Below the pieces are notes generated by a model. That model was not told the origin of the DNA. It saw only the letters and a program-made list of their open reading frames with translations, and did no database searches. A stretch of 64,000 bases of DNA from assembly GCF_053078305.1 (NCBI RefSeq), contig NZ_CP166879.1. The stretch is one strand, 5' to 3'. The translations under genes and the position numbers were made by a program. Of the stretch, positions 51,604-54,551 are shown in pieces (within the stretch, counting starts at the first letter, position 1; every line of letters starts with the position of its first letter).

Positions 51604-52779
51604 ATGCGTCTGTTTTCTGTTCCCCCACCCACGCTACTGGCGGGGTTTCTGGCGGTATTAATTGGCTACGCCAGTTCAGCGGCAATAATCTGGCAAGCAG
51701 CGATTGTCGCCGGAGCCACCACTGCACAAATCTCTGGCTGGATGACGGCGCTGGGGCTGGCAATGGGCGTCAGTACGCTGACTCTGACATTATGGTATCG
51801 CGTACCTGTTCTCACCGCATGGTCAACGCCTGGCGCGGCTTTGTTGGTCACCGGATTGCAGGGACTAACACTTAACGAAGCCATCGGCGTTTTTATTGTC
51901 ACCAACGCGTTAATAGTCCTCTGCGGCATAACGGGACTCTTTGCTCGTCTGATGCGCATTATTCCGCACTCGCTTGCGGCGGCAATGCTTGCCGGGATTT
52001 TATTACGCTTTGGTTTACAGGCGTTTGCCAGTCTGGACGGTCAATTTACGTTGTGTGGAAGTATGTTGCTGGTATGGCTGGCAACCAAGGCCGTTGCGCC
52101 GCGCTATGCGGTAATTGCCGCGATGATTATTGGGATCGTGATCGTTATCGCGCAAGGTGACGTTGTCACAACTGATGTTGTCTTTAAACCCGTTCTCCCC
52201 ACTTATATTACCCCTGATTTTTCGTTTGCTCACAGCCTGAGCGTTGCACTCCCCCTTTTTCTGGTGACGATGGCATCGCAAAACGCACCGGGTATCGCAG
52301 CAATGAAAGCAGCCGGGTATTCGGCTCCTGTTTCGCCATTAATTGTATTTACTGGATTGCTGGCACTGGTTTTTTCCCCTTTCGGCGTTTATTCCGTCGG
52401 TATTGCGGCAATCACCGCGGCTATTTGCCAAAGCCCGGAAGCGCATCCGGATAAAGATCAACGTTGGCTGGCAGCTGCCGTTGCAGGCATTTTTTATTTG
52501 ATCGCAGGTCTGTTTGGTAGTGCTATTACCGGGATGATGGCTGCCCTGCCCGTAAGTTGGATCCAGATGCTGGCAGGTCTGGCGCTGTTAAGTACCATTA
52601 GCGGCAGTTTGTATCAGGCGCTGCATAATGAGCGTGAGCGAGACGCGGCGGTGGTGGCATTTCTGGTAACGGCAAGTGGATTGACGCTGGTCGGGATTGG
52701 TTCTGCGTTCTGGGGATTAATTGCCGGAGGCGTTTGTTACGTGGTGTTGAATTTAATCGCTGACAGAAACCGATATTGA
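51604..52779 (+). CDS. ydcO: BenE-family inner-membrane transporter YdcO
   Basis: Begins MRLFSVPPPTLLAGFLAVLIGYASSAAIIWQAA; 391 aa; ORF track starts at 51481. Confidence 0.85.
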   Translation: MRLFSVPPPTLLAGFLAVLIGYASSAAIIWQAAIVAGATTAQISGWMTALGLAMGVSTLTLTLWYRVPVLTAWSTPGAALLVTGLQGLTLNEAIGVFIVTNALIVLCGITGLFARLMRIIPHSLAAAMLAGILLRFGLQAFASLDGQFTLCGSMLLVWLATKAVAPRYAVIAAMIIGIVIVIAQGDVVTTDVVFKPVLPTYITPDFSFAHSLSVALPLFLVTMASQNAPGIAAMKAAGYSAPVSPLIVFTGLLALVFSPFGVYSVGIAAITAAICQSPEAHPDKDQRWLAAAVAGIFYLIAGLFGSAITGMMAALPVSWIQMLAGLALLSTISGSLYQALHNERERDAAVVAFLVTASGLTLVGIGSAFWGLIAGGVCYVVLNLIADRNRY

Positions 52780-52818
52780 CATCCTCCACGCCCTGAAGGA
52801 CGTGGATCCCTGCTACGT

Positions 52819-54027
52819 TCAGGCTGTCGCCTGAATCATTTCGGTGGGTTCCTGCTTCAACGGGCGGCCTGACTGCACCATCTCTCCACAGGCAAGAACG
52901 GCGTGCCCCGCCGCTAAAATGTTACGAGCGCCATTTACATCGGCGTTCGCTGTATATCCACATACCTGGCATCTGAATTTACTTTGTGACAGGCGGTTCT
53001 CTTTCGCTGTATGACCACAGTACGCGCAACGCTGGCTTGTATACGCTGGCGGAACAGCAAGCACCTGACCGCCACGCCAGAGCTGCTTGTACTCAAGCTG
53101 GCGGCGCATTTCATACCAGCCCTGATCCAGTATCGAACGGTTTAAACCTGATTTTGCCCGGACATTGCGCCCCGGCTGGCTGACCGTACCCGCTGCTGAC
53201 TTTGACATGTTGCTGACCTTCAAATCCTCAATGACTATCATTGCGTGGTTTTTGCTGACGGCCGTTGTGACTTTGTGAAGGTAGTCCCTGCGGATATTTG
53301 CGATACAGGAATGCAGTCGCTGTATTTTGCGTTTCTGCTTCTGCCAGTTGTTGCTGAATTTGACCTTGCGGCTTAACTGTCGCTGAAGTCTCGCCAGCGT
53401 CTTCTGGTTTTTCTGAAAACTGTTTACAGGCTCAAAGACTGTGCCATCTGACAGCGTGGCGAGTTTAGCCACGCCAGCATCCAGCCCGACCATTGATGCT
53501 GAAGGGTGAGCCGGAGTGGATACTTCACTTTCTGTCTGAATACTGATGTACCACTTACCGCAGGACTGGCTGACAGTGACATTTTTCACAACACCCGTGA
53601 CCTGACGGCTATTCCGGTAGCGCATCCAGCCCAGTTTCGGCAGAAAAATACGGCTGTTTTCCTGATCGAGCTTAACGCCCTGCGGGTAGCGGAATGCATC
53701 ATTCTGTCCCCGCTTTTTGAATCGGGGAAAAGCAGCCCGCTTCCGGAAGAAGTTTTTGTAAGCCCGCTCAAGGTCTTTCAGTGACTGTTGCAATGGCTGT
53801 GAGGGAGAATCTTTAAGCCATTGCGTTTCAGTGGCATTTTTCCACTCAACCAGCCAGGAAGCCATTTTCCCGTAAGGGATGTATTTATTACCGGCCTCAT
53901 GATTCTCATTCTGACGTGCCAGAGCACGATTGAAAACGAAACGACATGCGCCTGCGAAGCGCCTCATTTCACACTCCTGTTGACCACCTGGTCTTAACTG
54001 GAATTTAAATGCCTGTAATCGTTTCAC
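52819..54027 (-). CDS. insQ: IS609 TnpB (OrfB; RuvC-like, zinc-finger; RNA-guided endonuclease family)
   Basis: 402 aa; C-terminal [37 protein letters not shown] zinc-finger/RuvC-III region typical of TnpB. Confidence 0.85.
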
Positions 54028-54034
54028 AGGTCAA

Positions 54035-54541
54035 ATGATACTTTGGTCTGTGAAAAAAGAAACCGATATCCGGCGTGGAAGGCATTGTGTTTTCCTGATG
54101 CATGTTCACCTGGTCTTTGTCACCAGATACCGACGCCAGATTTTTGACCATGACGCGACAGAAAAACTACGCACTTACTTTTCAAATGTATGTGCTTATT
54201 TTGAAGCTGAACTGGTTGAAATGGATGGCGAACCAGATCACGTCCATTTGTTAATTAACTAACCTCCCAAACTGGCGATATCCAGTCTGGTAAACAGCCT
54301 CAAAGGCGTATCGGGTAGGTTACTGCGACGAGATCGACCAGATATTGCAGTCAGGTATTACTACAAAGGCGTTTTGTGGAGTCCTGGCTATTTTGCCAGT
54401 AGCTGCGGAGGTGCGCCAATATCCGCCATCCGTCAATACATTGAACAACAGCAAACACCTGGTCAGGTGGAAAACCGCGCCTTATATCCCCGCCCTGAAG
54501 GATGGGGTTTTACGGCGCACCGGATAAAAAGCGCCATCTAA
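54035..54541 (+). pseudogene. insP: IS609 TnpA (HUH/Y1 transposase) with premature in-frame TAA at 54260–54262
   Basis: The frame reads ...HVHLLIN* then continues in the same frame as PPKLAISSLVNSLKGVSGRLLRRDRPDIAVRYYYKGVLWSPGYFASSCGGAPISAIRQYIEQQQT..., typical of IS200-family TnpA. Confidence 0.75.
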
Positions 54542-54551
54542 CGATGGCGCG
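54520..54551 (-). terminator. Rho-independent terminator of ydcL (gcgccatc taac gatggcgc followed by a U-tract on the minus-strand transcript)
   Basis: Hairpin plus tttttatcc on the reverse strand directly after the ydcL stop. Confidence 0.6.

Follow-up and report, generated by a model that had tools for sequence, protein, structure and literature searches.

The Helicobacter pylori insertion sequences (ISs) IS605 and IS608 encode a Y1 transposase of the HUH type (TnpA), carry subterminal hairpins rather than inverted repeats, and insert 3′ of a short motif with no target duplication. IS608 targets TTAC and its right end closes in TCAA, and IS605 has a divergent gene order. At the ends of IS200/IS605 elements, the subterminal DNA hairpins are recognized by TnpA. 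For the TnpB proteins of ISDra2 and Geobacillus, the guide is the flank lying 3′ of the element's right end. The activity of ISDra2 TnpB has been demonstrated (PMC8612924), while the copy that we describe here is known by its sequence. That copy, of IS609, lies in a 64,000-nt stretch of contig NZ_CP166879.1 (RefSeq assembly GCF_053078305.1; 'the window', whose positions are used throughout), between ydcO (plus strand, stop codon at 52777-52779) and ydcL (minus strand, from 54559). We give a probability of roughly 80% to the reading that it is a non-autonomous IS609, with a dead tnpA gene and with an intact tnpB gene and structured RNA that, by homology to characterized TnpB systems, would provide a mechanism of retention or homing.

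A dead transposase gene beside an intact TnpB gene

The scan of open reading frames (ORFs) and the raw sequence together place two reading frames in the ydcO-ydcL interval: a 402-aa ORF on the minus strand and a divergent, interrupted frame on the plus strand. Their features are as follows.

54027..52819, minus strand: tnpB (insQ), 402 aa, GTG start, intact; named 'RNA-guided endonuclease InsQ/TnpB family protein' by the Prokaryotic Genome Annotation Pipeline (PGAP)
54035..54466, plus strand: tnpA (Y1/HUH transposase) pseudogene, with the HVH motif just before the internal stop and the IRQYIEQQ catalytic-tyrosine region kept downstream
54260..54262, plus strand: in-frame TAA in place of Tyr76 (TAT>TAA, nucleotide 228 of tnpA)
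54464..54466, plus strand: lost tnpA stop codon (TAG>CAG, 430T>C), from which the frame crosses the left end and stops beyond the element, at a TAA (54539-54541)

The 402-aa protein matches the Pfam domains HTH_OrfB_IS605 (3e-13), OrfB_IS605 (1.7e-34) and Cas12f1-like TNB (2e-23). It scores 380.6 bits against the NCBIfam model NF040570 guided_TnpB (cut-off 100), and 306.8 against the narrower model NF038281 IS200_TnpB, under that model's cut-off of 425. Residues 3-372 align with the structures of ISDra2 TnpB (8EXA/8BF8; E = 2.7e-55), an alignment in which the RuvC residues D183, E267 and D363 fall on D191, E278 and D361 of ISDra2; the zinc cysteines of the CxxC...CxxC motif (C334, C337, C353 and C356) are all kept. 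Such matches to solved TnpB structures are decisive for placing the protein in the TnpB family. An earlier note on this DNA had described a 402-aa tnpB with an intact zinc-finger/RuvC region, and the aligned triad and four cysteines agree with it.

We called the lesions of tnpA against the intact 143-aa copy from O157 (WP_000604943.1). The frame reads ...DHVHLLIN, then TAA, then PPKLAISS...IRQYIEQQQTPG; with codon 76 repaired, the protein scores 143.6 bits against the NCBIfam model NF033573 transpos_IS200 (cut-off 55). The earlier note had this frame continuous except for a single TAA. The TAA is indeed present, at 54260-54262, and the description missed a second lesion, the TAG>CAG loss of the tnpA stop. 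Nearly all relatives in other species terminate at the codon position that has been lost here, and the read-through is therefore derived. The Y76* allele, counted as an exact 59-nt match, occurs in 1,021 of 4,999 matching E. coli records and on that count is a lineage-specific minority allele. A copy at the yajI site (L003, NZ_CP163115.1) carries the same TAA, which suggests trans-mobilization of an element whose tnpA was already dead, or else gene conversion between copies.

That this element does not transpose by itself, as the earlier note had also held, is a reasonable view: K-12 mutation-accumulation lines showed no IS609 transposition (PMC5009759), though the K-12 tnpA lesion is a different one. 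The IS609 described here keeps both of its ends and could be mobilized in trans by an intact TnpA encoded elsewhere.

The tnpA ATG (54035) and the tnpB GTG (54027) are divergent and 7 bp apart (54028-54034). Each promoter is therefore bound to lie within the other gene, and the 5′ portions of the two transcripts would overlap in antisense. Transcripts of insQ and insP are present in an RNA-seq table from Shiga toxin-producing E. coli (PMC6033998).

Limits, orientation and insertion motif

The limits of the element are given here with its terminal features; the minus strand, on which tnpB is encoded, serves as the top strand.

52776..54523, minus strand: whole IS609 element, 1748 bp, with limits from copies at five sites and from two empty sites
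starting at 54523, minus strand: left end, on the tnpA 3′ side, 5′-CCGGTGCGCC...
finishing at 52776, minus strand: right end, on the tnpB 3′ side, ...GGAGGATGTCAA-3′
54524..54528, minus strand: target or transposon-adjacent motif (TAM) TTTAT (ATAAA on the plus strand), directly outside the left end and kept in the empty allele
54488..54507, minus strand: left-end subterminal hairpin CCCCATCCTTCAGGGCGGGG, in direct orientation relative to the right-end hairpin
52786..52805, minus strand: right-end subterminal hairpin CCACGUCCUUCAGGGCGUGG, also the last helix of the RNA scaffold

We aligned copies from ydcO-ydcL, a TetR gene near ytfB, yajI, yeaQ-DUF1869 and yfaV-yfaY. The sequence shared by these five-site copies runs from TTGACATCC... 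to ...GCGCACCGG and breaks off at both points. The empty ydcO-ydcL spacer of an E. coli genome (L007) reads ...AACCGATA/ATAAAAAGCGCC... (the slash marks the junction), which is the left flank followed by the right flank with no duplication, and ATAA(A) is flank sequence, outside the element. Because the empty allele and the five-site alignment agree, we set the limits of IS609 at 52776-54523, without target duplication. Written on the minus strand, the junctions are 5′-TTTAT/CCGGTGCG...GGAGGATGTCAA/TATCGGTT. This pattern resembles that of IS608, in which a short motif precedes the left end on its 5′ side and the right end closes in TCAA.

The left-end and right-end hairpins lie on the same strand and have a common loop, CCTGAAGG, and terminal inverted repeats are absent. 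From its sequence, the element is IS609, a member of the IS200/IS605 family: we found a Y1 transposase, subterminal hairpins, motif-specific insertion without duplication, and IS609 identity. The earlier note had named it IS609 and is upheld by the 1748-bp annotation in K-12 and by the NCBI name 'IS609 family transposase' given to the O157 copy. It had placed the limits at 52785-54545, which the five insertion sites and two empty sites show to be wrong, and it had left the ends to be defined by alignment. The copies now put the left end at 54523 and the right end at 52776, and the resulting length is the same 1748 bp as that of the IS609 feature in the K-12 RefSeq record.

Across E. coli insertion sites, the motif beside the left end is TTTAT in six of seven and CTTAT in the seventh. 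We also considered TTGAC (plus strand, 52776-52780) as a target motif resembling the TTGAT of ISDra2, an assignment that would make the plus strand the top strand. It was rejected because TTGAC is absent from both empty sites (L006 and L007), which keep ATAA(A) on the opposite side; read on the minus strand, TTGAC is GTCAA, the terminus of the right end.

A covarying RNA at the tnpB 3′ end

The RNA predicted to act with TnpB spans the end of the tnpB frame and the right end of the element.

52927..52776, minus strand: predicted omega RNA scaffold, 152 nt, made of the last 109 nt of the tnpB frame including its stop (52927..52819) and the 43-nt right end

We compared the 3′ regions of 80 loci with TnpB relatives at 58-94% identity, from Enterobacterales and other Gamma- and Betaproteobacteria. 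These regions have the common terminus GGAGGATGTCAA and diverge directly beyond it. From 33 non-redundant tails (alignment A1), RNAalifold gave a consensus structure of 40 pairs, with compensatory changes in 22. In this structure 95.2% of cells are paired, compared to 42-50% in slid controls, and 114 cells are changed on both sides, compared to 13-27 in the controls; none of 500 shuffles matched the observed values. Helix 8, which is the right-end hairpin, has both-sided changes in 7 of its 10 pairs. G-U pairs are numerous on the tnpB-sense strand of the scaffold, which argues that the structure is one of RNA and not DNA, and that its strand is the tnpB-sense strand.

A covariance model built from A1 (R1) scores 162.6 bits at 52927..52776, its sole match in the window. 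Of 37 held-out loci, 35 gave exactly one R1 match, located on the sense strand at the 3′ end of tnpB, and the two loci that R1 missed are truncated remnants. We predict that the covarying RNA is the omega RNA scaffold, as expected for a TnpB. The earlier note had expected an omega RNA near 52780-52900 and was essentially right: the covarying RNA occupies 52927..52776, and its end coincides with the edge of the element beside the ydcO stop.

An Rfam scan of the region (E ≤ 1) returned no family at its gathering threshold. On the same strand and at the same place, three families scored below their thresholds: HgcC (RF00062; 22.2 against 50), sot0042 (RF02656; 17 against 88) and RAGATH-18 (RF03064; 25.4 against 44.9). 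The scaffold therefore belongs to no curated Rfam family. Its weak likeness to these three lies in the terminal hairpin and in the CCUGUGGAG...GAAGCAGGAA stem (CCUGUGGAG/GAAGCAGG); RAGATH-18 matches the stem weakly (52849-52892, minus strand), and HgcC and sot0042 match the region of the terminal hairpin. This suggests that the three orphan families are relatives of TnpB omega RNAs.

Predicted guide and target, and the three alleles of the ydcO-ydcL spacer

If the arrangement of characterized TnpB systems holds here, the guide would be the 3′ flank of the element, about 16 nt long.

52775..52760, minus strand: predicted guide, 5′-TATCGGTTTCTGTCAG, the flank directly 3′ of the right end, antisense to the last ydcO codons

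The guide sequence occurs once in the window. On the minus strand of the empty allele (L007) we found TTTAT followed by exactly TATCGGTTTCTGTCAG, and an allele occupied by IS200C (L008, NZ_CP023820.1) keeps the same motif and target. The predicted TnpB target would thus be TTTAT+TATCGGTTTCTGTCAG, or in its longer form TTTAT+TATCGGTTTCTGTCAGCGAT. On the resident chromosome, GTCAA and not TTTAT precedes the guide match, and the resident locus would for that reason be immune. Because the empty and IS200C alleles both carry TTTAT and the guide match, the nuclease would be pre-programmed against the competing alleles.

Across E. coli, the ydcO-ydcL spacer exists as three alleles: empty, IS200C and IS609. 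The flanks lie no more than about 800 bp apart (empty or IS200C) in 2,136 of 5,416 genomes, and about 3,280 genomes therefore have an IS609-sized insertion; that is, roughly 60% of E. coli genomes have one at this fixed position. In many E. coli genomes, IS200C sits a few bases away in the same spacer, after ATAAA (junction 52775/54524).

These components can be arranged into a proposed mechanism. The T-tract of the ydcL terminator received IS609 directly 3′ of a TTTAT, without target duplication; the element has the divergent tnpA/tnpB layout of IS605. Y76* and the loss of the stop codon have left its Y1 transposase gene dead, and tnpB and the RNA are intact. Transcription of tnpB through the right end would produce an omega RNA, composed of the scaffold (52927..52776) and the guide of about 16 nt (52775..52760). 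TnpB would bind this RNA and cut DNA in which TTTAT is followed by TATCGGTTTCTGTCAG, which is the IS-free ydcO-ydcL junction. Such a target could come from excision by a TnpA supplied in trans, or from incoming DNA with an empty or IS200C-occupied allele, and the outcome would be that the element is retained or homes. With neither TnpA nor an empty allele, the nuclease would have no target in the present cell. This retention and homing logic is the one described for the TnpB family, and it is from homologous systems that we infer the guide length, the use of the TAM by TnpB, cleavage and homing.

Decay of tnpA and retention of tnpB across E. coli

A megablast search of 5,426 complete E. coli genomes found a full-length copy (at least 80% query coverage) in 4,310. 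We sampled 18 PGAP-annotated IS609 copies, 11 of them at ydcO-ydcL. All 18 have tnpB as an intact coding sequence, and tnpA is a pseudogene in 17. Within the ydcO-ydcL set, the 1209-nt tnpB is open in 11 of 11 copies and tnpA is dead in 11 of 11. The primary lesion is not the same throughout, with at least five kinds among these copies: Y76*, L96*, a stop at codon 62, and deletions of 1 bp and of 5 bp. Polymorphism in tnpB among the same 11 copies amounts to 19 synonymous and 24 nonsynonymous sites, a ratio of 0.36 (binomial P = 0.0012 against neutrality), and no catalytic or zinc residue is hit. Pairwise ratios of nonsynonymous to synonymous polymorphism between copies were noisy (0.14-0.69) and were replaced by this pooled count of segregating sites. 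The 172 nt of scaffold and guide show 0-2 changes. At a further site, hslO-yhgE (L100 and L101), the copy is missing its left end and, of tnpA, the 3′ two thirds, yet it retains a full-length tnpB and the RNA scaffold. One of these two loci (L101) has lost 1 bp close to the 5′ end of tnpB, and PGAP annotates an upstream start that bypasses the deletion.

A bolder account of this pattern is that, once IS609 was fixed between ydcO and ydcL, E. coli lineages lost tnpA repeatedly and independently, while purifying selection keeps tnpB and its RNA as a self-maintaining allele drive. We offer it tentatively and would wager against it, though not heavily. If it were true, the TnpB-RNA complex would cut an IS-free or IS200C ydcO-ydcL allele arriving by horizontal transfer or recombination, and the nuclease would live on independently at a chromosomal locus once its transposase had died. 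As a caveat on the decay pattern, the loss of tnpA might itself be favored.

Weighing the alternatives

Several points weigh against a functional TnpB-RNA system in a non-autonomous IS609. The selection signal comes from 11 phylogenetically related copies, between which gene conversion is possible. The tnpB gene is not universally intact, as an evenly spaced sample of tnpB matches included 56 at full length, 4 of them with indels. A simple scan for the sigma-70 consensus detected nothing resembling a promoter upstream of tnpB, and none for tnpA either. A trans-cleavage screen included a purified 'IS609' TnpB orthologue, which was not the one picked out for high activity (PMC12781874). Transcription, RNA processing and nuclease activity are ascribed to the present copy by homology. 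Finally, the two forms of the yajI site disagree over the exact motif: in K-12, where the site is empty (L006, NC_000913.3 around 432.3-432.9 kb), the junction has TTGAT, and the occupied yajI site (L003) has TTTAT. The discrepancy may be either a strain polymorphism or a tolerance of both motifs.

Some of these points would be expected if the whole element, tnpB and RNA included, were an inert relic that is vertically inherited, with tnpB intact through the shortness of time or through gene conversion. We consider this improbable, although it is the rival that survives best. The clear decay of tnpA, the tnpB indels in some copies and the promoter scan all fit it, as does a cell in which TnpA is dead and no target is obvious; the presence of several IS609 copies per genome (median of two places) would permit gene conversion. 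An inert relic does not sit well with at least five independent tnpA knockouts in 11 copies against none in tnpB, which is 2.8 times longer. Nor does it account readily for the low nonsynonymous-to-synonymous ratio in tnpB, for the near invariance of the RNA scaffold, or for the hslO-yhgE copy, where tnpB is still full after the left end and most of tnpA have gone.

A second rival assigns the retained tnpB to the host: the complex of its protein with the RNA, domesticated as a TldR-like or other regulator, would bind DNA or RNA without cutting DNA and regulate, for example, ydcO. A fixed chromosomal position in about 60% of E. coli genomes, the survival of tnpB after tnpA loss, and a guide antisense to the ydcO 3′ end in an element that also provides the ydcO stop codon could all be read in this way. 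Known TldR proteins are nuclease-dead, whereas the present TnpB has an intact RuvC triad and zinc finger and the element retains both of its ends, so that the marks of a TldR are missing. The guide is the plain insertion flank, as in every mobile copy; the resident target lacks a TAM; and copies elsewhere, with unrelated guides, show the same pattern of retention. Together these make domestication very unlikely. The idea that the hairpins are single-stranded DNA signals for TnpA with no RNA role draws on the coincidence of helix 8 with the right-end hairpin and on the similar hairpin at the left end, and we dismiss it because the covarying helices 1-7 reach about 110 nt into the coding region of tnpB, far past any TnpA site, because the many G-U pairs of the tnpB-sense strand would become C-A if read from the opposite strand and weak G-T in DNA, and because the weak Rfam likeness is to TnpB-associated RNAs. 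For helix 8, the DNA-signal and RNA roles can coexist. Our preferred reading therefore remains the non-autonomous IS609 with a TnpB and an omega RNA that are probably functional.

Neighboring genes and related loci

Two features of the neighboring genes meet the ends of the element.

54531..54550, minus strand: hairpin of the ydcL intrinsic terminator, directly upstream of the TTTAT motif and left end, not part of the IS
52777..52779, plus strand: ydcO stop codon TGA, provided by the final bases of the IS right end

The insertion point of IS609 is the T-tract of the ydcL terminator. With IS609 present the YdcO C-terminus is ...NRY*, and in the empty allele it is ...NR*. The terminator hairpin of the empty allele stands about 5 bp past the ydcO stop, and IS609 puts 1.7 kb between them. 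Transcripts of ydcO may therefore enter the IS, in antisense to tnpB and its RNA.

Some loci collected in the comparison are not typical copies. Near yedE-yedF and an SOS-response peptidase gene (L093 and L094), there is an IS609-related remnant whose tnpB is truncated, with about 290 nt of its 5′ part annotated as a helix-turn-helix pseudogene. Beside it, tnpA is annotated as an intact coding sequence of 525-540 nt, and the covariance model found no omega RNA match in this remnant. In Candidatus Erwinia dacicola and in a Plautia stali symbiont (L013 and L023), the element forms a stand-alone contig of IS length (1752 and 1753 bp), as is typical when a multicopy repeat collapses in assembly. 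An assembly of Streptomyces mutabilis (L021) includes a 2-kb contig that encodes an enterobacterial-type TnpB with 81% identity and looks like contamination.

Significance

Both the IS609 element and what insQ encodes were known before and are labeled as such in reference genomes. As annotation, our analysis is ordinary and adds nothing to the labels found there (IS609, insQ as an RNA-guided endonuclease, tnpA as a pseudogene). What is mildly new is the population pattern, in which tnpA is lost repeatedly and tnpB and the RNA are kept at a fixed site with three alleles. Its value is modest: it offers a natural experiment in the best-studied bacterium, with one site, three alleles, several tnpA knockouts, and an intact nuclease gene and RNA. 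The question that E. coli genetics makes testable is whether TnpB-omega RNA function, and selection on it, persist after the transposon has become immobile.

Our literature search on insQ, IS609 and ydcM turned up no study of the native E. coli IS609 TnpB-omega RNA. It returned annotation mentions, the K-12 mutation-accumulation result and the in vitro screen of an 'IS609' orthologue. A preprint by Kaur et al. used the H. pylori IS608 in MG1655, and a keyword search of its text brought up no discussion of a native E. coli tnpB.

Comparison with known systems

The closest described copy is the IS609 of K-12 MG1655 (insQ b1432 and pseudogene yncK b4578; NC_000913.3, 1503161-1504908), which occupies the same site, has the same length of 1748 bp, and carries an intact 402-aa insQ. 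The K-12 RefSeq record labels this site 'insertion sequence:IS609', pseudogene yncK, and insQ 'putative RNA-guided DNA endonuclease'. The two copies differ in how tnpA was broken: K-12 has Tyr at codon 76 and TGA at codon 96, whereas the present copy has TAA at 76 and Leu at 96. Their tnpA regions are 98.6% identical, and the window is not K-12. At a near-identical RefSeq locus, PGAP annotates insQ and a tnpA pseudogene with an 'internal stop'.

The O157 copy (NZ_CP015832.1) has the same 1748 bp, an intact tnpB, and the same terminal sequences except for one base in the stem of the right-end hairpin. Unlike the present copy, it has an intact 143-aa tnpA with a TAG stop. It lies in a TetR-family gene between ytfB and yjfZ and, being at another site, would therefore have a different guide.

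The ISDra2 TnpB of Deinococcus radiodurans (8EXA, 8BF8 and 8H1J) belongs to the same protein family and has the same domain order, at about 40% identity to the present TnpB. The two systems are also alike in an RNA drawn from the tnpB 3′ end and the right end, and in a 5-nt T-rich motif beside the left end. However, tnpA and tnpB of ISDra2 have the same orientation and its motif is TTGAT, whereas the present IS609 has divergent genes and TTTAT. Compared to the H. pylori elements, the present IS609 combines a right end in TCAA, as in IS608, with the divergent gene order of IS605, and it differs from both in host, sequence and motif.

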